Source: Candidatus Deianiraeaceae bacterium (GTDB lineage: Bacteria > Pseudomonadota > Alphaproteobacteria > Rickettsiales > Deianiraeaceae). From it: a stretch of DNA of 24,585 nucleotides. The DNA lies in the NCBI GenBank assembly GCA_044347825.1, contig JBIKUA010000001.1:1-24585 (forward strand), in the 5' to 3' direction. The notes beneath the pieces were generated by a model that saw nothing but the letters and a program-made list of their open reading frames with translations, ran no database searches and had not been told where the DNA came from. Shown one piece after another: positions 3,198 through 20,690 of the stretch. A program made the translations under genes and the position numbers. The stretch's first letter is position 1; every line of letters starts with the position of its first letter.

Positions 3198-4763
3198 ATG
3201 GAAACAAGAGATATTTACAAAAAATCAAAGGCTTGGGCTTTTGAAGAAGCGTTTAAAATTTTAGAAAAAATAGGAGGTAAAACTCCAAAAAAAGGGTATG
3301 TTCTTTTTGAAACAGGGTATGGACCTTCTGGTCTCCCTCATATTGGCACATTTGGGGAAGTAGTGCGAACTTGCTTTGTGAAATTTGCATTTGAGCAAAT
3401 CACAGAAGGCAAAATTCCAACAAAACTCATTTGCTTTTCTGACGATTTAGACGGGCTTAGAAAAGTTCCAGATAACATTCCAAACAGGGATATGGTGAAA
3501 GAACATTTAGGAAAGCCATTAACAAGTGTGCCTGACCCTTTTGGCACTCATGAAAGCTTCGGTCATAATATGAACGCAAGGTTAAGAGCTTTTTTAGATA
3601 GTTTTGGGTTTGAATACACTTTTATTAGTGCTCTTGAAAAATATAAAAGTGGTGAATTTAACGAAACATTACTTAATGTTGTAAAAAATTATGAGAAATT
3701 GATGGATTTAATGCTTAAAAATTTAGGTGAAGAAAGGCAAGAAACCTACAGCCCAATAATGCCAATTTGCCCTAAAACTGGGAAGGTTTTAGCAGAAGGC
3801 GTGAAGGCAGTGAATAAGGAAAAAGGCACGGTAATTTATGTAAACGAATTTGGAGAAGAGGTGGAAACTGAAGTGACAAACGGAAAGTGCAAACTTCAGT
3901 GGAAAATAGATTTTGGTGCAAGATGGCAAGCTTTAGATGTAGATTACGAGATTTTTGGAAAAGAACACGCTCCAAATGCTAAACTTTATCAACAAATATG
4001 CAAAATTTTAGGAGGTGAAGGACCTATTAATTTTGTCTACGAACTTTTCTTAGGTGAAGATGGTGCAAAAATTTCTAAATCCAAAGGTAATGGAATATCA
4101 GTTGAAGAATGGCTCTCTTTTGCTCCGCAAGAAAGTTTGAAATTATTTATGTTTCAAAAGCCAAAAACGGCAAAAAGAATGTTTTTTGATGTTATACCCA
4201 AAAATGTAGATGAATACATTAAATATGTGGCAAGTTATGGCAAACAAACAGAGGAGCAAAAGCTTGAAAATCCTGCTTACTTCGTGCATTTTGGAAATGT
4301 GCCAGATTTCAACTTAGGAGGTATTGATTTTAGTTTGATACTTCATCTTGTTTCCGCTTCTAGCGCTGAAAATAGTGATATTTTATGGGGTTTTGTCAAT
4401 AAATATAATTCTTCTCTTAAAAAGGGCGATATACCATTTTTAGATAACCTTCTTGAATGCGGAATTAGGTATTTTGAAAAGTTCATAAAACCTTATAAAT
4501 CCTTTAGAAAAGCAAGTGAAATTGAGGTAAAGGGGCTTTTAATGTTTAAAGAATTTTTAAGTGAAAATTTGGAAGCAACTGCAGAGGAAATTCAAAATAA
4601 AGTCTATTCAATTGGTATGGAGCTTGGGCTTGAGTTGAAAGCTTGGTTTGGAGGGATTTATCAGGTTCTACTAGGGCAAAACGAAGGTCCTAGAGTTGGA
4701 AGTTTTACAAAACTTTACGGAGCTTTAAATATGATAAAATTAATAGAGGAAAAATTAAGATAA
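3198..4763 (+). CDS. lysS: Lysyl-tRNA synthetase, class I (LysK type)
   Basis: FETGYGPSGLPHIGTFGE (HIGH), KLQWKIDFGARW, and KISKSKGN (KMSKS); 521 aa. Confidence 0.95.
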   Translation: METRDIYKKSKAWAFEEAFKILEKIGGKTPKKGYVLFETGYGPSGLPHIGTFGEVVRTCFVKFAFEQITEGKIPTKLICFSDDLDGLRKVPDNIPNRDMVKEHLGKPLTSVPDPFGTHESFGHNMNARLRAFLDSFGFEYTFISALEKYKSGEFNETLLNVVKNYEKLMDLMLKNLGEERQETYSPIMPICPKTGKVLAEGVKAVNKEKGTVIYVNEFGEEVETEVTNGKCKLQWKIDFGARWQALDVDYEIFGKEHAPNAKLYQQICKILGGEGPINFVYELFLGEDGAKISKSKGNGISVEEWLSFAPQESLKLFMFQKPKTAKRMFFDVIPKNVDEYIKYVASYGKQTEEQKLENPAYFVHFGNVPDFNLGGIDFSLILHLVSASSAENSDILWGFVNKYNSSLKKGDIPFLDNLLECGIRYFEKFIKPYKSFRKASEIEVKGLLMFKEFLSENLEATAEEIQNKVYSIGMELGLELKAWFGGIYQVLLGQNEGPRVGSFTKLYGALNMIKLIEEKLR

Positions 4764-12310: not shown

Positions 12311-13705
12311 ATGAAACCTAATTTTAATGGAAAATTCGTTTTACTAGGGTTTGGCTCTGTTGCCTCTTCCCTTATGCCTCTACTTTTTAAACATTTTGAG
12401 ATAAATCCTCAAAATTTAATTATTATTTCAAGCGATGAAAGAAATAGTAAAATAGCCTCTCATTATGGGGTTAAAATCAATGTTTGCCCATTAAATAGAA
12501 CTAACTACAAAAAGATTTTATCTCAATATCTAGAAAAAGGAGATTTTTTGGTGAACTTATCAGTAGATGTTAGTAGTTTAGATTTAATTCGCTTTTGCAA
12601 TGAAATTGGAGCTTTATATCTTGATACCTGCATTGAACCATGGCCCGGATTTTACACAAATGAAGAGCTTTCCCCTTCTCAAAGATCTAACTTCTTTTTA
12701 AGAAAAGAGGTGTTAGATTTAAGGGGCAATCTTGCTAAAAATAGCCCTACTGCCGTTGTTTGTCATGGAATGAACCCTGGAACGATTTCTCATTTTGTTA
12801 AGCAAGCACTTGTGAATATGGCAAAAGATGCAGGAATTGAGACGAACCCTCAAACTAGTGAAGACTGGGGAAAGCTTGCAAAAATGCTTAAAATCAAGGT
12901 AATTCATATTGCGGAAAGAGATACTCAAATTGCAAACACACCTAAAAGGCAAGATGAATTTCGCAACACTTGGAGCGTGGACGGATTTTTAAGTGAGGGT
13001 AGTCAGCCTGCAGAAATGGGGTGGGGAAGCCACGAAAAAGAAATGCCAAAAGATGGCGTAAAACCTCATTCTAATGCCCCTTCTATTATACTTACAACTC
13101 CAGGATTAAAAACAAAAGTAAAAACATGGACTCCAATATCGGGCTCTTGTGAAGCGTTTGTAATAACTCACAATGAAGCGATTAGTATTTCTGAGTATTT
13201 TAGCTATAAAGCAGGAGATGGCTCTGTTTATAGACCAACCTGCCATTATGCTTACCGTCCTTGTAATGACACAGTTTTGAGCCTTCAAGAATATGCAGAT
13301 AAAAATTTTGAGAAGCATCCAAAACAGCTTATTTTAACTGATGAAATCGTAGATGGTGTTGATGAATTGGGAGTTCTTTTAATGGGAGGAGAAAAAGCTT
13401 ACTGGTTTGGAAGTTTGTTAGATATACATGAAGCTAGGAAGTTAGCACCTTTTAACACGGCAACATCTCTTCAAATTACATCTGGTGTGCTTTCTGCTAT
13501 TGTTTGGGCGATTAACAATCCTCAAAGAGGGATAGTTGAGGCGGAGGATATGGATTATAACGAGGTTTTGTCCGTTTCTAGTCAATATCTAGGTATGCTT
13601 GAAGGATTTTACACAGATTTCACACCACTAAAAAACAGGCAAAATTTATTTGAGGAAGATTTAGATAAAAGTTGTCCTTTTCAGTTTAAGAATTTTAGAG
13701 TTTAA
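12311..13705 (+). CDS. hss: Homospermidine synthase
   Basis: LLGFGSV, VNLSVD, YLDTCIEPW, HGMNPG, IHIAERDTQ, NTWSVDGF, THNEAISI, YRPTCHYAY, DELGVLL and NTATSLQ. Confidence 0.93.
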   Translation: MKPNFNGKFVLLGFGSVASSLMPLLFKHFEINPQNLIIISSDERNSKIASHYGVKINVCPLNRTNYKKILSQYLEKGDFLVNLSVDVSSLDLIRFCNEIGALYLDTCIEPWPGFYTNEELSPSQRSNFFLRKEVLDLRGNLAKNSPTAVVCHGMNPGTISHFVKQALVNMAKDAGIETNPQTSEDWGKLAKMLKIKVIHIAERDTQIANTPKRQDEFRNTWSVDGFLSEGSQPAEMGWGSHEKEMPKDGVKPHSNAPSIILTTPGLKTKVKTWTPISGSCEAFVITHNEAISISEYFSYKAGDGSVYRPTCHYAYRPCNDTVLSLQEYADKNFEKHPKQLILTDEIVDGVDELGVLLMGGEKAYWFGSLLDIHEARKLAPFNTATSLQITSGVLSAIVWAINNPQRGIVEAEDMDYNEVLSVSSQYLGMLEGFYTDFTPLKNRQNLFEEDLDKSCPFQFKNFRV

Positions 13706-15878: not shown

Positions 15879-16337
15879 TTAAAATCCAAAACGATTTTGA
15901 ATTTCTATATAAATTTTATCCGCTACATCTTGCGAAGCATTTTCGCTTGCAGATTTTTGAGTGAAAAAGTCTGCTATTACATTCTCTCTTGCAGAAAGAT
16001 AGTTTGTATAACTAGAAGCAGAGCCAGTAAATATAACTTTACCTGTTTCAAACTCCATTAATTTAAAACTAACATTAATTGTAAGCACAAAATTTGCAGT
16101 AATTGCATCACTTCCAAGCCCAGAACCTCCAATTGTCTCTTTTTTTTCAATCAAAAGCTTATAATTTGGATTAGATGAAGTTTCAAATTTATCTTCCAAA
16201 AATCTCTTTATAATAAATGCATTGTTATCCATTTTATTTGGTATAACAACAACATTTTTAATTTTATCTTCTCTTTTAACTTCTTCTAAATTACAAGCAA
16301 AAACAAGAAGGCAAAATATTATTAAAAGTTTCTTCAT
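15879..16337 (-). CDS. Lipoprotein, probable LPS-assembly LptE family
   Basis: Signal peptide with lipobox (MKKLLIIFCLLVFAC). Size and beta-rich pattern (YKLLI...FVLTINVSFKL...GKVIFTGSA...A.DI) fit LptE. Not in the usual leuS-lptE-holA context. Confidence 0.55.
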   Translation of the reverse strand: MKKLLIIFCLLVFACNLEEVKREDKIKNVVVIPNKMDNNAFIIKRFLEDKFETSSNPNYKLLIEKKETIGGSGLGSDAITANFVLTINVSFKLMEFETGKVIFTGSASSYTNYLSARENVIADFFTQKSASENASQDVADKIYIEIQNRFGF

Positions 16338-17245
16338 AATTTTAACATCTCATCAACTATTTTTTCTTGAATTCTAATTCCATAAAGTTCGTTTATCAGG
16401 CAAAATCCAGTTGGTGAAGTTACATTAATTTCTGTTATATTATCATCTATTACATCAATACCAACTAAAAATAGCCCCAATTCCTTAAACTTTAAAAAAA
16501 ACTCCCTGCACATTTCCTTTTCTCTTTCCGTTAAAGTAGTTTGAAAGTACTTCCCTCCAACTGCAGTGTTAGAAATTGCATAATCTTCCGCCTGAACTCT
16601 GTTTAATGCACCTGCAAATTCTCCATTTATAAAGAGAATTCTTTTATCCCCCTTTCTCACATTTGGTAAATATTTTTGAGCTATAATTGGTAATCCGTTA
16701 TAGCTTTCCTTTAAAACCCTAAAAGCATTAAAGAGGTTTTTATCATTTTTAGGAATATAAAACACTCCCATACCTCCGTGAGCGTAAAGAGGTTTTAGTA
16801 TAATTTCATTATGCTTTTGCCAAAATTCTCTAACCTCTGCCTCACTATTTGTAATTATTGTTTCTGGCATAAATTTTGCAAAATCTAAAACAAATAGCTT
16901 TTCTGGGCAGTTTCTAACCGAAGTTGGGTTATTTAGTACTTTTGCCTTTTTAAGTCTTTCAAGTAAGTATGTTGTTGTTATATAATTCATATTAAATGGA
17001 GGGTCTTGCCTTAGAAATATAAAATTAAAGTCATCTAAGTTCTTCTTCTCCATTACGCCTTCCTCTTGCTCTCCTTCAAAGGCAAAACCCTCGGCGTAAA
17101 TTTCACCATTTTCATACCTTAGAGTTTCAGGATAGTAAAACCAAACATCAAAGTCTCTTGCATAACATTCGTGCATAATTAGTAAAGATGTATCTGTTTT
17201 TGGTTTTAAAGTGGTTATTTTATCTATTTGAAAGGCAATTTTCAT
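16334..17245 (-). CDS. gshB: Glutathione synthetase
   Basis: MKIAFQID, DTS, FLRQDPPFNMNYI, RNCPEKL, LKPLYAHGG, GDKRI, SNTAVGG and EINVTSPTG. Start set at ATG 17245. Confidence 0.95.
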   Translation of the reverse strand: MKIAFQIDKITTLKPKTDTSLLIMHECYARDFDVWFYYPETLRYENGEIYAEGFAFEGEQEEGVMEKKNLDDFNFIFLRQDPPFNMNYITTTYLLERLKKAKVLNNPTSVRNCPEKLFVLDFAKFMPETIITNSEAEVREFWQKHNEIILKPLYAHGGMGVFYIPKNDKNLFNAFRVLKESYNGLPIIAQKYLPNVRKGDKRILFINGEFAGALNRVQAEDYAISNTAVGGKYFQTTLTEREKEMCREFFLKFKELGLFLVGIDVIDDNITEINVTSPTGFCLINELYGIRIQEKIVDEMLKL

Positions 17246-17305: not shown

Positions 17306-18493
17306 TTACTTAACTTCCAAACTCTTAAAATTTGCCATATTTTTAAAATCTTGATACGCCTCGTCAAAAGAAGAACTCTCGGATAAAATCTTGCCAGCAA
17401 TTTCTCGAAGACTTTTAGACCAGTCTAAAACATCTCCCTCTTTAACTAAAAACTCAATATTATATTTACTTTTTAATTCAGGTTTTTTCAAATTTAAAAC
17501 AACTCCTTTAGTAAAAGGTATTATACCGCTAAAACAATATGATTTTACTTTAAAATCTGTATTTTTTACTAAATTAAAGTGGTTGAGTAAATCTAGATTA
17601 GGTATATTAATACCAAATTGCTTATTATACATTGGAATTGCTAAACCTCCCGCAGTTCTACCACCTATTTCAAGAAATACAAATTCATCATTAGGAGTGA
17701 TAAAAAATTCAAGATGAGTAGCACCCGTTATGTATCCAAGAGCTGTTATTACATTTTTTGCCAATATTGAAGCTCTTTGAGAAATTTCACTTTCTCTTGG
17801 CAGAGGCACTGTAAGAAGGGTCTTACCTGATTTAAAATCTGCATTTGGATAAGAATATTCATTGCATACTTCAAATATAACATTACCATCGTTATAAATG
17901 CCGTCAATATGATAAAGCTTGCCAAAAATAAAGCTTTCACATTCAAAATCTTCTTTGCGTTTTATATACTTTATAGCACATTCAAAATCCTCCTCTGTTT
18001 TAATAATATTAACATCTTTGGATGCAAATTCACTTTTAGGCTTTAAAACAAAAGGTATACCAAATTCTTCTTGTAACTCATTAAAGCTATTAAAATCAGC
18101 TAATTCCCCAAACTTAGGAACTAAAACCCCAAATTCTTGTAATTTTTGCTTCATTTTTACTTTATCTCTAAGTAGAATTGCTGTATGTGGCTTTACGCCA
18201 ATTATATTAAAATATTCTCGTAGTTCTGCAACATAAAGCATATTATCCTCCGAGATACAAATAAACCTAATATCTGATTTATTGTAAGATTGCAAAACTT
18301 TACCGAGTTCCTCTTTTATGTTAGAATAAGTTAAAATGCGTGTAAAAACATTTCCAAATTCTTTTTTAGTTAATTCAAATTCATCTTCATTTACAACCGC
18401 AATGAAGTGAAAGTTAGTCTCTTTTTTAAGAACATTAAAATCATATGTTTTTAGTTTAATAAATGTATTAAATAGAACTGCTATTTTTGTCAT
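17306..18493 (-). CDS. ATP-grasp ligase, L-amino-acid-ligase/peptide-ligase-like
   Basis: RDKVKMK, PFVLKPK, ECESFI.G, HLEFF and FLEIGGRTAGG; 395 aa with an N-terminal alpha/beta domain and a short C-terminal domain. Confidence 0.85.
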   Translation of the reverse strand: MTKIAVLFNTFIKLKTYDFNVLKKETNFHFIAVVNEDEFELTKKEFGNVFTRILTYSNIKEELGKVLQSYNKSDIRFICISEDNMLYVAELREYFNIIGVKPHTAILLRDKVKMKQKLQEFGVLVPKFGELADFNSFNELQEEFGIPFVLKPKSEFASKDVNIIKTEEDFECAIKYIKRKEDFECESFIFGKLYHIDGIYNDGNVIFEVCNEYSYPNADFKSGKTLLTVPLPRESEISQRASILAKNVITALGYITGATHLEFFITPNDEFVFLEIGGRTAGGLAIPMYNKQFGINIPNLDLLNHFNLVKNTDFKVKSYCFSGIIPFTKGVVLNLKKPELKSKYNIEFLVKEGDVLDWSKSLREIAGKILSESSSFDEAYQDFKNMANFKSLEVK

Positions 18494-19631
18494 ATAATTG
18501 ATAAAAAATTAAAAATACTGCACTGCAAATTAAGCATATAATTAAACATAAAATCCAAAGTAAATTTGGGTTAATTTGGTAAAAAAAACTTCCAAATATA
18601 GGTGAAAAGAAAACACCTAAAGAAAATGAAGCTTGATAAATACCCATCGTCTTACCTTTTTTGTAAATACTTGTATTTAAAATATAAGGTAGCATAATTG
18701 GAAAGAGTATCATTTCTGAGAATGTCCAAAATGCACAAAGCAATACACCAATAAAAAAATTATCAACCAAAAAGGTAAGACCAATTCCAATTGCAAGCAT
18801 TATAGAACCTATAAAACATCCAATTGATGGCTTTATTTTATCACAAACAAACCCTACAGGAATTTGAAATATTAAAATAAGAACGCCATGTATTGTAAAT
18901 AGAAACGAAACTTCAAAGACTGTAAAATTTGCATAATCTTGAAGAAACATAACATAAGTTGTTTTATACTGCTCAAGAACCATAATTCCAAGCAATAACA
19001 TCAAATTTAAGATGCAAAATATAAAAAAGCTTGAATGAGGTGGCTTAACTTCCCCTTCTTGTTGAGCTTTATGACATTTTATTTTTTTTAAAAACAAGGA
19101 AAGTATAAAATTTAAGAAAAAAACAAAACCAATTATAACAAAAGCAAACTGATGTTGTTTTTGAAACAAAAATCCAAAGACAACCGAGGAGACGCTAAAT
19201 CCAAAATTTAAAACCACCCTCCTAAAGGAAAGAGCCGTTGACTTACTAACGCCTCCCATTCTTTCAAACATTAGTAAAATGGCAGAAGGTCTAAAACTAC
19301 TATTAAAAAACCCAGCACAAAACATACATATTGCTATTGCGAAAGAGCTTTTAAAAAGTCCCAGTAAGGTTATAAAAATAGCATTTCCCATTATAGAAAA
19401 AGATACTATCCCTTTAGATGAAAAATAATCTACCATTTGCCCACCTATATAACCTCCTAAAAACCCCCCTACGCCAAATAAGGCTATAAAAAAACCGATT
19501 TCTTTTACATCAAATCCTATTTCTTTTAAAAACATCGTGATAAGTATGGGTAGCATACCTCCGCTAGCATTAAAGAAAATAAGGATTAGAACAAGCAAAA
19601 AACCTTTTGGTAATTTAGTAAATTCAGTCAT
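18468..19631 (-). CDS. MFS transporter (probable exporter)
   Basis: About 12 hydrophobic segments, with motif-A variants GGYIGGQMVDYF and GFVCDKI. Likely start ATG 19631, overlapping the upstream stop (ATGACTGA). Confidence 0.88.
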   Translation of the reverse strand: MTEFTKLPKGFLLVLILIFFNASGGMLPILITMFLKEIGFDVKEIGFFIALFGVGGFLGGYIGGQMVDYFSSKGIVSFSIMGNAIFITLLGLFKSSFAIAICMFCAGFFNSSFRPSAILLMFERMGGVSKSTALSFRRVVLNFGFSVSSVVFGFLFQKQHQFAFVIIGFVFFLNFILSLFLKKIKCHKAQQEGEVKPPHSSFFIFCILNLMLLLGIMVLEQYKTTYVMFLQDYANFTVFEVSFLFTIHGVLILIFQIPVGFVCDKIKPSIGCFIGSIMLAIGIGLTFLVDNFFIGVLLCAFWTFSEMILFPIMLPYILNTSIYKKGKTMGIYQASFSLGVFFSPIFGSFFYQINPNLLWILCLIICLICSAVFLIFYQLYDKNSSSI

Positions 19632-20634
19632 CTTGAAACCATGGTTCATATATTCTGCCTCTAAGAACTTTTATGCGATAGAAGGATGATATGTCACGAG
19701 ATACGAAAACTCTTTGAATCCATCTATCTGGTCTTCCATCTACCGAGTACTCTGGCGTAAAAGATTCTCTAGCATGCAAAGTATATTTGTTATTAAGTAA
19801 AAGCAATTTACCTGCCGTTAGCACTTCATAGCAAGCAAGTTCATTCACTTTATTGCGAAATTGCAATAAAGATTTACCCGCCTGTTCCGAAAGTGGCTTT
19901 ACAACATCAGAATAAAATGCAAAAAAAACCCTCGGATTCTGCAAATTACCAGAAACCATAGGTACGGGCTTCATTATCAATTTATCTTTAGGAAGGTAGC
20001 TTCGCCATCTATATGGCACAGATATAGTAAAATTTTCTCCTCTCAATAATTTTATGTCCTCTTTTTCCATTAAACTCAATACTTTTCTAGCATCTACAAA
20101 TTTTGTTTTAACAGGGTTGCCGTGATTTGAAGCAATTCCAAGTAATAAAAGAGCGGAAGGAGATAAATTATCATATTTAAAGAGAAAATTAAGAGCTGAA
20201 TTTTCTATATGAAAATCAAGCTCGGACTCGGAGCCAAGCCCCGTATAATCATATTTTGTTTCTTTATAAGGTATAAGGTTATTTACCACACTATCACCTT
20301 CGGCTGAAATAGAATATGGTTCACCAATTACTGATGCAAAGGCTAAAATGATATTTTCTGAGATAAAATCTTTCTCAAATACTTCACCTTTGAATGGAAT
20401 TTTTTCTACATTTGAAGAAGGTAAATTTTCCACAATTACAGCATATATCTCATTATTGTTAAGTAAATTTAGAGTATCAAGAACCCTATCAGGAAAGTTC
20501 TTGTAAGCTATTTTTCGCAAGCTTTGAATATAATTGGGGCTACCAATTGGATCATATTTCACATCAAGTAAAGCATTATACACTACATCTTTTTCACTTT
20601 CCGTCAGTATTATTTTACTAGAAAGCTCACTCAT
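19624..20634 (-). CDS. Fe(II)/2-oxoglutarate-dependent oxygenase, clavaminate synthase/AsnO/VioC family
   Basis: GSESELDFHIEN (H142-x-E144), then TLHARESFTP (H287) and DRWIQRVFV. This H-x-E...H triad plus DRW..R tail is characteristic of the family. Confidence 0.85.
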   Translation of the reverse strand: MSELSSKIILTESEKDVVYNALLDVKYDPIGSPNYIQSLRKIAYKNFPDRVLDTLNLLNNNEIYAVIVENLPSSNVEKIPFKGEVFEKDFISENIILAFASVIGEPYSISAEGDSVVNNLIPYKETKYDYTGLGSESELDFHIENSALNFLFKYDNLSPSALLLLGIASNHGNPVKTKFVDARKVLSLMEKEDIKLLRGENFTISVPYRWRSYLPKDKLIMKPVPMVSGNLQNPRVFFAFYSDVVKPLSEQAGKSLLQFRNKVNELACYEVLTAGKLLLLNNKYTLHARESFTPEYSVDGRPDRWIQRVFVSRDISSFYRIKVLRGRIYEPWFQDD

Positions 20635-20662
20635 AAATAATAATAATTATTAGTGCGAAGGT

Positions 20663-20690
20663 ATTATACTTATAAAAAATAATGCGTCAA
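20663..20690 (-). promoter_or_regulatory. Near-consensus sigma70 promoter of the oxygenase-MFS-ATP-grasp operon
   Basis: Minus strand cTTGACG(20690-20685)-N16-TATAAT(20668-20663), 28 nt upstream of the ATG. Confidence 0.65.

Follow-up and report, generated by a model that had tools for sequence, protein, structure and literature searches.

A co-conserved oxygenase, MFS transporter and ATP-grasp ligase cassette with a probable role in small-peptide biosynthesis in a reduced Deianiraeaceae genome

The bacilysin and rhizocticin pathways of Bacillus subtilis make a dipeptide with a non-proteinogenic residue by means of a stand-alone ATP-grasp ligase (BacD/YwfE, with the exporter BacE, and RizA/RhiM), and an MFS-type exporter is encoded in their loci. 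Small NRPS-free ligase cassettes are missed by standard mining tools, which are keyed to NRPS, PKS or RiPP cores. Among the clavaminate-synthase-like (CSL) Fe(II)/2OG oxygenases of free amino acids, AsnO is the L-asparagine 3-hydroxylase of the CDA pathway and KDO1 is an L-lysine 3-hydroxylase. In the fuscazine pathway a CSL/VioC-type oxygenase, the Arg hydroxylase FuzA, acts on the free amino acid and is followed by ATP-grasp ligases, giving a short peptide without an NRPS (PMC13149037). The mangotoxin mbo operon of Pseudomonas syringae is likewise small and encodes an amino-acid-oxidizing enzyme, two ATP-grasp amide ligases and a transporter; its product is a dipeptide antimetabolite (PMC13725569).

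Here we analyzed a window of Candidatus Deianiraeaceae DNA (the whole stretch of 24,585 nucleotides under study) with a trio of genes for a CSL oxygenase, an MFS transporter and a stand-alone ATP-grasp ligase. The trio is a co-conserved set of ligase, precursor-tailoring enzyme and transporter, as found in NRPS-independent ATP-grasp dipeptide clusters of the bacilysin, rhizocticin, tabtoxin, dapdiamide and mangotoxin type. The window ligase shares 17-19% identity with RizA, BL00235 and BacD, and the bacilysin and rhizocticin warhead genes (bacA-G, phosphonate genes) are absent from the window, which has a single CSL oxygenase instead. Fuz has a four-gene hydrazine cassette, a tRNA deacylase and arginine as substrate, whereas the window cassette consists of three genes only and its oxygenase pocket (P-Y-R/A/Y) lacks the Asp residues for basic side chains. 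The mbo oxidase is a heme-oxygenase-like protein plus an oxidoreductase rather than a CSL Fe/2OG enzyme, and mbo, with its two ligases and a deiminase, shows no orthology to the window genes. The cassette most likely represents a known pathway style (oxidase, ATP-grasp ligase and transporter are an established class) built from new enzyme subfamilies. It is a concrete and inexpensive experimental handle on two uncharacterized enzyme groups, the CSL G6 oxygenases and a large L-amino-acid-ligase subfamily.

The earlier note on this DNA had described three intact, overlapping genes behind a near-consensus promoter, with catalytic motifs in the oxygenase and the ligase, and every one of these features was recovered (Table 1 and below). 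The MFS start ATG overlaps the oxygenase stop codon by 8 nt (19631-19624 reads ATGACTGA), and orthologous cassettes have the same overlap; between the MFS gene and the ATP-grasp gene the overlap is 26 nt. In the AT-rich region the total of promoter-like sites is not above chance (37 vs 37.8 expected from shuffling). The -35 (CTTGAC) and -10 boxes have aligned counterparts in front of the L001 and L003 cassettes, where the surrounding DNA has diverged, and the L006 cassette has a looser, weaker match; overall the boxes recur upstream of three of the four orthologous cassettes. In the explanation that we favor, the cassette genes are translationally coupled and under their own promoter.

Table 1. 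Coordinates of the cassette genes, their promoter and the downstream neighbor.
Feature	Position	Strand	Remarks
Sigma-70-like promoter, TTGACG-16 nt-TATAAT	20663-20690	minus	11/12 consensus positions; ends 29 nt upstream of oxygenase ATG
Oxygenase gene	19624-20634	minus	336 aa, intact ORF
MFS transporter gene	18468-19631	minus	387 aa from ATG at 19631, intact
MFS longest ORF	18468-19649	minus	alternative ATG at 19649, giving 393 aa
Stand-alone ATP-grasp gene, L-amino-acid-ligase fold	17306-18493	minus	395 aa, intact ORF
gshB, glutathione synthetase, neighbor outside the cassette	16334-17245	minus	NCBIfam glutathione synthase 333 bits vs 272-bit cut-off

The AF2 model of the oxygenase (pLDDT 86) matched AsnO, KDO1, VioC, OrfP, NapI and CmnC in Foldseek (E 1e-19 to 5e-25, TM 0.74-0.81), and the PDB profile search matched AsnO at 1e-27. 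Identity to AsnO, KDO1 and VioC is ~20%, whereas the CSL double-stranded beta-helix fold (TM ~0.8), the HxE...H triad, the 2OG Arg and the two contacts diagnostic of free-amino-acid enzymes, an Arg to the alpha-carboxylate and a Glu to the alpha-amine, are all shared. The score against Pfam TauD (PF02668) was 22.4 bits, under the 27-bit cut-off; since most of the ~40%-identical homologues carry PF02668, the oxygenase is a divergent CSL member and not a non-member. The iron triad H142, E144 and H287, aligned with AsnO H155, E157 and H287, is invariant among 30 homologues, and the D303-R304-W305 motif is present. Also invariant are R304 (2OG C5 carboxylate, P18; AsnO R301), R308 (substrate alpha-carboxylate, P19; AsnO R305) and E112 (alpha-amine, P2; AsnO E125), the CSL positions being defined as in PMC6224419 (P2 Glu/Gln, P18 Arg, P19 Arg, P12-P16). 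Because E112, R308, R304 and the triad are invariant, the oxygenase should act before ligation.

The side-chain sub-pocket, which is PPSD in AsnO and DSDD in VioC, is PYR+A with an invariant Tyr in the window family: P207-Y208-R209, A239 and Y241 are conserved in 30/30 sequences, with rare H or F at Y208 and Val at A239 in some. When mapped by HMM alignment to AsnO PPS...D rather than by structural superposition, these residues fit the motif of CSL group G6, P-Y-R-(A/V) (P12-P15) plus Tyr (P16). Group G6 is without reported activity, and Glu or Asp has been proposed as its substrate (Bastard et al., 2018, PMC6224419). The positively charged pocket points to an acidic substrate (Glu, Asp or a larger analogue), a call based on the HMM alignment to AsnO and on that published hypothesis for an uncharacterized group. 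The reaction is most likely a beta-hydroxylation; desaturation or cyclization may also be considered, and the profile scores do not divide the three since the oxygenase falls under the TauD cut-off and under that of every NCBIfam equivalog. Assignment as a VioC, AsnO, GntD or clavaminate synthase equivalog was ruled out, with scores far under the curated cut-offs (GntD 62 vs 345 bits, CS1 54 vs 450, VioC 48 vs 419; the AsnO equivalog was likewise missed).

G6-type oxygenases with an invariant pocket have a wide distribution across Legionella, Burkholderia, Pantoea and Bacillus. The ~40%-identical oxygenases (38-42%) of Fluoribacter gormanii, Legionella sainthelensi, Burkholderia cenocepacia and a Pantoea replicon adjoin MFS genes and genes for ATP-grasp ligases that either bear LAL_C2 or resemble DdaF. 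Of 5 loci sampled for the wider oxygenase family, 4 show linkage to ligase and MFS genes. The oxygenase pocket residues in these clusters are identical to those of the window, but their ligases and MFS proteins are non-orthologous to the window proteins (20-25% identity), and the clusters are larger, containing a racemase, a flavin reductase, extra ligases, an aminotransferase and regulators. In Burkholderia and Pantoea the clusters around this oxygenase family carry several ligases together with LysR or TetR regulators, as is typical of biosynthetic loci.

The trio itself is kept as a unit, with the same order and overlaps and with different flanks, in at least five further lineages. Its hosts are a congeneric Deianiraeaceae MAG, two related metagenome lineages and Thiotrichales MAGs. 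Amino acid identity to the window drops in parallel across the oxygenase, the MFS protein and the ligase: 76/63/63% in L001/L011, 62/57/55% in L003/L004, 56/49/53% in L006, 38/34/32% in L013 and ~31/28/29% in L014, where the oxygenase is frameshifted. The trio-linked oxygenases form one clade (support 100/100), and of 25 genomes from the family only 2 carry the ligase. Decayed copies are present in Fastidiosibacter lacustris, where only oxygenase residues 1-81 are left, and in L036, which has fragments of all three genes; L009 has the MFS and ligase genes without the oxygenase. The oxygenase is thus dispensable in some lineages (L009, Fastidiosibacter), which counts against the pathway that we favor, and the ligase can act on a substrate that has not been modified. 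Our best overall explanation, which we consider probable, is that of a self-contained, horizontally mobile cassette.

The earlier note had read the trio as modifying an amino acid, ligating it and exporting the product in a probably host-associated bacterium. The first part of this reading gains support from the co-conservation, from the predicted folds and from the closest relatives, which are biosynthetic (RizA, BL00235 and BacD; AsnO, KDO1 and VioC), no catabolic or uptake pathway having surfaced. The second part fits the reduced genome (~1 Mb, from lake water) of this Deianiraeaceae (Rickettsiales) MAG. In a Rickettsiales genome of this size each retained accessory gene likely matters for eukaryotic host association or against competitors. 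A secreted secondary metabolite in a ~1 Mb genome is unusual, though not unknown.

We favor, with some confidence, a biosynthetic cassette in which a free amino acid is oxidized and ligated and a small modified peptide is exported. In the first step the CSL Fe(II)/2OG oxygenase would oxidize a free L-amino acid, as the conserved substrate contacts suggest. The RizA/BacD-like ligase, judged by its fold and family, would then activate a carboxylate as an acyl-phosphate and join this to another amino acid at its amine, yielding a dipeptide or small amide with the modified residue. Export by the DHA-like MFS pump would be the third step, and it is the weakest of the three. In a more specific form, which we put forward tentatively and consider rather doubtful, G6 would receive its first function, the hydroxylation of free acidic amino acids (Glu/Asp type), and ligation of the product would give a dipeptide for secretion. 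Bacteria with reduced genomes that live with protists (Deianiraeaceae, Fastidiosibacteraceae relatives, Legionellales) would use this dipeptide as an antimetabolite or as a glutamate/aspartate mimic aimed at the host, and horizontal transfer between them would spread the cassette. Hydroxylation of free Glu or Asp, if borne out, would make the oxygenase valuable as a biocatalyst and would account for a recurrent set of orphan clusters.

The transporter matches MFS_1 (3e-36, 125 bits) and has ~12 TM segments by hydropathy. Its best NCBIfam matches are drug/H+ antiporters (with Tet and Cmx among the efflux pumps), all far under the cut-offs, and its sole PDB sequence match is the efflux pump NorA (1e-8). 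The protein is probably an exporter, transport direction being a property that is not readable from sequence. Of the antiporter motifs, canonical motif A was not found and one C-like motif only is present, in the C-terminal half. The MFS protein could instead take up a host-derived or environmental amino acid or small peptide, with the oxygenase and ligase making an intracellular metabolite (for example a compatible solute, a storage substance or something like a cofactor) that is not secreted. The lack of a clear antiporter motif A or C is compatible with import, Rickettsiales with reduced genomes depend strongly on importers, two more MFS genes, of the sugar/ProP type, flank the L001 cassette, and G000 encodes a stand-alone MFS paralogue 50% identical to the cassette protein. 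We nevertheless regard import as unlikely: the best matches are the efflux pumps named above, in the free-living, metabolite-rich Burkholderia and Pantoea the oxygenase family belongs to the multi-ligase clusters of biosynthetic layout described above, and the patchy, cassette-like distribution is more in keeping with an accessory trait than with core metabolism.

For the ligase, the closest solved structures are L-amino-acid ligases and not Ddl, PurK, PurT or biotin carboxylase. The profile search matched RizA (4wd3) at 9e-39, BacD and BL00235 at ~1e-18, and Ddl at 1e-10 or weaker, and the six best Foldseek matches of the AF2 model (pLDDT 92) were RizA, BL00235 and BacD/YwfE. The motifs RDK..MK (R109-K115), LKP (K151-P152), HLEF (H260-E262) and LEIGGR (E275, R279) are present, with K111, K151, E184/E186, E262, E275, R279 and G282 invariant or nearly so; this set covers the ATP-binding Lys residues, the Mg-binding acidic residues and the catalytic Arg-x-x-Gly. 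R279 and G282 correspond to BacD R328 and G331 in the alignment, and the position of BacD W332 is Gly or Ala, as in RizA. Pfam ATP-grasp_4 was matched at 41 bits (27-bit cut-off), the Pfam search did not detect the LAL_C2 domain (PF18603), and every NCBIfam equivalog threshold was missed widely (BacD, 26 vs 850 bits). On these sequence comparisons the ligase is a member of a separate, uncharacterized L-amino-acid-ligase subfamily, for which 1303 representatives were counted at E<=1e-30. Fusions to aminotransferases or to NRPS A-PCP-TE modules, present in some members, characterize the subfamily as biosynthetic.

ATP-grasp enzymes are broad carboxylate-amine ligases, and the window ligase might join its carboxylate to a non-amino-acid amine (a polyamine or an envelope precursor), giving an acyl-polyamine or an envelope modification and no dipeptide. 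A saccharopine-dehydrogenase/homospermidine-synthase-like gene, a possible source of the polyamine, lies 3.6 kb off (12311-13705), but it adjoins no other cassette locus examined; weak D-Ala-D-Ala ligase matches also speak for this alternative, but they are far weaker than the RizA match. With the best sequence and fold matches falling specifically on L-amino-acid ligases, we judge this alternative quite improbable.

Downstream of the cassette, gshB starts 60 nt away on the same strand. No terminator-like site was found 3' of the ATP-grasp gene, so read-through into gshB is possible. The ATP-grasp enzyme might stand in for a missing glutamate-cysteine ligase and feed a (hydroxy)glutamyl dipeptide to GshB, an idea that agrees with the acidic substrate suggested by the oxygenase pocket; glutamate-cysteine ligases of PF04262 and PF04107 were not found in G000 (76% complete). 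We consider this very improbable. The adjacency is seen in the window only: gshB is on another contig in the congeneric G002 and is not beside the cassette in L001, L003, L006 or L012-L014, and the likewise congeneric G001 has gshB but yielded no ligase match. A promoter-like site of gshB (17297-17269, 11/12) lies inside the 60-nt spacer, upstream of the likely gshB start ATG at 17245, and the MFS gene would be left without a role.

Contigs ~92% identical to the oxygenase and ligase genes were found in an estuary metatranscriptome, where contigs from an RNA library do not prove transcription. Decay is evident in Fastidiosibacter lacustris, L036 and the frameshifted L014 oxygenase, but it is highly unlikely that the window cassette is itself an inactive remnant of horizontal transfer decaying in a shrinking genome: all its ORFs are intact, the catalytic residues, translational coupling and promoter are kept, the changes relative to the ~92%-identical relative are mostly synonymous or conservative (19 of the 32 changed codons are synonymous), and its sequence recurs unchanged in two more lake metagenomes that are independent.

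The earlier note had described an operon of an oxygenase, an MFS transporter and an ATP-grasp ligase that would modify an amino acid, ligate it and export the product. The three ORFs are indeed intact and overlapping: the oxygenase stop and the MFS start share ATGACTGA at 19631-19624, and the MFS and ligase genes overlap by 26 nt. Since orthologous cassettes keep the identical 8-nt overlap at the first junction, the MFS start is more likely at 19631 than at that of the longest form. Every catalytic motif listed in the note was found and is invariant among homologues. Its near-consensus promoter-like site is also present. The 11/12 match is weak on its own because the number of promoter-like sites in this AT-rich DNA equals the shuffled expectation, but the -35 and -10 boxes align at equal position upstream of the cassettes of a congeneric MAG (L001) and of a metagenome lineage (L003), and more loosely in a second such lineage (L006), amid diverged sequence. 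This supports a promoter that travels together with the cassette. No terminator-like site was found downstream of the ligase gene.

Features of the cassette and its surroundings in the window
Feature	Position	Strand	Remarks
Class-I lysyl-tRNA synthetase (tRNA-synt_1f)	3198-4763	plus	fits alphaproteobacterial or Rickettsiales origin
152-aa ORF	15879-16337	minus	
gshB, bona fide glutathione synthetase	16334-17245	minus	likely start 17245
ATP-grasp ligase ORF	17306-18493	minus	395 aa, intact
MFS ORF, longest form	18468-19649	minus	393 aa, intact
Oxygenase ORF	19624-20634	minus	336 aa, intact
Promoter-like site TTGACG-16-TATAAT	20690-20663	minus	11/12 positions matched

Co-conservation of the three genes, on which the operon reading depended, was found at several loci with different flanks. 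The same order is kept in the congeneric MAG (L001/L011; 76/63/63% amino acid identity for oxygenase/MFS/ligase) and in the metagenome lineages L003/L004 (62/57/55%) and L006 (56/49/53%). The latter two are probably related Rickettsiales, because the housekeeping proteins flanking their cassettes are 60-86% identical to the counterparts in the source MAG. More distant trios occur in a Thiotrichales MAG (L013; 38/34/32%, oxygenase divergently placed) and in another MAG (L014; about 31/28/29%, oxygenase frameshifted). The trio-linked oxygenases form one clade with support of 100/100. One locus, L009, carries a two-gene variant with MFS and ligase only; its Lyase_1/ADSL_C gene was considered as an alternative first enzyme and rejected, being purB-sized and separated from the MFS gene by 219 nt, and is most likely a housekeeping neighbour. 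In Fastidiosibacter lacustris (L012:4629-7251, NZ_QLIR01000007) the MFS and ligase (40% identity) are preceded by an oxygenase stub of residues 1-81 only; this cultured isolate thus offers a natural oxygenase-less variant in a growable strain. A proteobacterial MAG (L036:4014-6396) holds only fragments of the three genes (oxygenase 125-331, MFS 2-163, ligase 263-394), the remains of a decayed cassette. The differing flanks at each compared locus, the identity that drops in step across the three proteins, the reduced or decayed copies and the presence of the ligase in only two of the 25 family genomes searched (the source MAG and its congener G002) are together what an accessory cassette spreading by horizontal transfer would show, with the MFS-ligase pair as its core. 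At L003:5115-5240, immediately upstream of the intact oxygenase gene, there is a short additional match to oxygenase residues 170-211, which may be a duplication remnant or an insertion scar.

The oxygenase scores 22.4 bits against Pfam TauD, under the 27-bit cut-off, and falls far under the GntD, CS1 and VioC equivalog cut-offs. A profile built from 30 homologues matched AsnO at 1e-27 and KDO1 at 4e-20, and the AF2 model (pLDDT 86) matches, at a TM-score of about 0.8, AsnO, KDO1, VioC, OrfP, NapI and CmnC. All six of these enzymes act on free amino acids. In the HMM alignment to AsnO the iron triad corresponds to H142, E144 and H287, the 2OG-binding Arg to R304, the alpha-carboxylate Arg to R308 and the alpha-amine Glu to E112, and all six residues are invariant among the oxygenase homologues. 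Because the alpha-amine and alpha-carboxylate contacts are both kept, we infer that the oxygenase would work on a free amino acid, ahead of ligation. The side-chain sub-pocket differs from those of two of these enzymes: where AsnO has PPS...D and VioC has DSDD, the same alignment gives P207-Y208-R209...A239 and an invariant Y241, a pocket that is essentially identical in 30/30 homologues from Rickettsiales to Bacillus. This is exactly the motif, PYR(A/V) plus a conserved P16 Tyr, of group G6 of the clavaminate-synthase-like (CSL) oxygenases. Bastard et al. (PMC6224419) have proposed that the group takes acidic substrates, Glu or Asp for example, possibly up to the size of arginine. No bacterial CSL enzyme acting on free Glu is listed in a 2022 review (PMC11611013). 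It is a reasoned hypothesis from the pocket residues that the substrate of the window oxygenase is acidic, and the cassette provides a testable link to the uncharacterized G6 oxygenases.

Wider oxygenase neighborhoods were sampled one by one at five loci with homologues of 38-42% identity; among 400 genomes sampled from the phylum only the source MAG matched, which left no basis for neighborhood statistics. The homologue of Fluoribacter gormanii and of Legionella sainthelensi is the first gene of an operon that also encodes a flavin reductase, an Asp/Glu-type racemase, an unknown protein, a LAL_C2-bearing ATP-grasp ligase and an MFS transporter. The Burkholderia cenocepacia homologue has two ATP-grasp ligases as neighbors, one of them DdaF-like, together with two MFS genes, a LysR regulator and an amino-acid-binding protein. 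Downstream of the homologue on a Pantoea replicon lie an MFS gene, three ATP-grasp ligases and an aminotransferase. The Bacillus pumilus homologue has just an MFS gene next to it. Since the ligases and transporters at these loci are not orthologous to those of the window (20-25% identity), the oxygenase has been combined repeatedly with different amino-acid ligases and pumps, as expected if its role is to provide a building block of small peptides destined for export.

An MFS_1 domain was found in the transporter, along with about 12 TM segments. Among curated families it best matches drug/H+ antiporters, and NorA is its sole PDB sequence match. Export of the product would be the weakest link in the proposed chain, because the canonical antiporter motifs are not evident in the MFS sequence. 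An MFS protein may run in either direction, and the opposite arrangement, in which it imports and the product is used inside the cell, is unlikely but the most serious of the alternatives. A second MFS, about 50% identical to that of the cassette, is split over two contig ends of the source MAG (C103:4638-5411 and C104:1-331) and stands alone, with neither ligase nor oxygenase as a neighbor.

The ligase passes the Pfam ATP-grasp_4 threshold and reaches no curated equivalog. A profile of 14 homologues matched RizA (4wd3) at 9e-39 and BacD and BL00235 at about 1e-18, with D-Ala-D-Ala ligases far behind, and the six best Foldseek matches of the AF2 model (pLDDT 92) are RizA, BL00235 and BacD/YwfE. 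This specific resemblance to L-amino-acid ligases makes a non-amino-acid acceptor improbable. The catalytic R279 and G282 align with BacD R328 and G331. At the position of BacD W332, the YwfE Trp that restricts the N-terminal substrate to small residues, the ligase has Gly or Ala, as does RizA; as a lead only, the pocket may be open for the N-terminal substrate. The ligase at first seemed to belong to an extremely rare family, with 15 relatives in a word-based search, but an exhaustive profile search (E<=1e-30) gave 1303 representatives of an uncharacterized subfamily, and the rarity is limited to near-orthologues. Members P0138 (2122 aa), P0139 (1736 aa) and P0143 (1544 aa) are fused in tandem and carry AMP-binding/PCP/thioesterase modules or aminotransferase domains, forming hybrid ATP-grasp/NRPS-like megaenzymes, which argues for a biosynthetic subfamily. 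The fused top profile matches (P0136, P0138) are about 27% identical to the window ligase and were rejected as orthologues; they are informative on the subfamily only. A distant ligase relative (32% identity) lies at L008:5228-12145 in a cluster comprising two ATP-grasp ligases, an MFS gene, a DAO-type flavoenzyme and a cupin/methionyl-tRNA-synthetase-like fusion, a gene set resembling hydrazine (N-N bond) synthetase cassettes.

By analogy, the cassette logic is that of the NRPS-independent ATP-grasp dipeptide pathways: bacilysin, rhizocticin, tabtoxin, dapdiamide, the more recent mangotoxin (PMC13725569) and fuscazine, in which a VioC-like free-arginine hydroxylase is combined with ATP-grasp ligases (PMC13149037). 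The trio had not been recognized as a characterized pathway, and this still holds: none of the three proteins belongs to a characterized equivalog, and our literature search found no characterized cluster of these families and no paper on the cluster type. The Pantoea PNP-1 cluster (PMC4010436) was considered and is unrelated.

The cassette adjoins gshB, and the glutamate-cysteine ligase families PF04262 and PF04107 were both not found in the source MAG (840 kb, 76% complete), which would fit a glutathione-type role of the cassette ligase. This role is very improbable: the adjacency is not kept even inside the genus, and in the congeneric genome G001 gshB is present but the ligase is not. Each of the three genomes of the genus carries gshB, and PF04107 matched in none of them; the 60-nt spacer before gshB holds its own 11/12 promoter-like site. 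The 152-aa ORF has no Pfam or NCBIfam match; it lies directly upstream of priA, and its overlap with the gshB stop is 4 nt. Decay of the window cassette is just as hard to sustain, with all catalytic residues and the translational coupling intact.

The exact cassette sequence is contained in no RNA run. In one estuary metatranscriptome, contigs from a relative match the oxygenase (378 nt) and ligase (145 nt) genes at about 92% identity; 19 of the 32 changed codons are synonymous and the remainder mostly conservative. These contigs may be DNA carry-over in the library; the pattern is compatible with, and no more than suggestive of, a relative's cassette that is expressed and under selection.

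What is notable about the cassette is that it sits in a reduced Rickettsiales genome. Placement in this order, to which the family Deianiraeaceae belongs, is consistent with the class-I lysyl-tRNA synthetase and the ribosomal and housekeeping genes of the window; the congener G002 is of the same genus. The GC content of the trio (30.4% vs 31.6% for the window) gives no compositional sign of recent acquisition. Several studies yielded lake-water metagenomes that contain the stretch, in two of them with an identical sequence.
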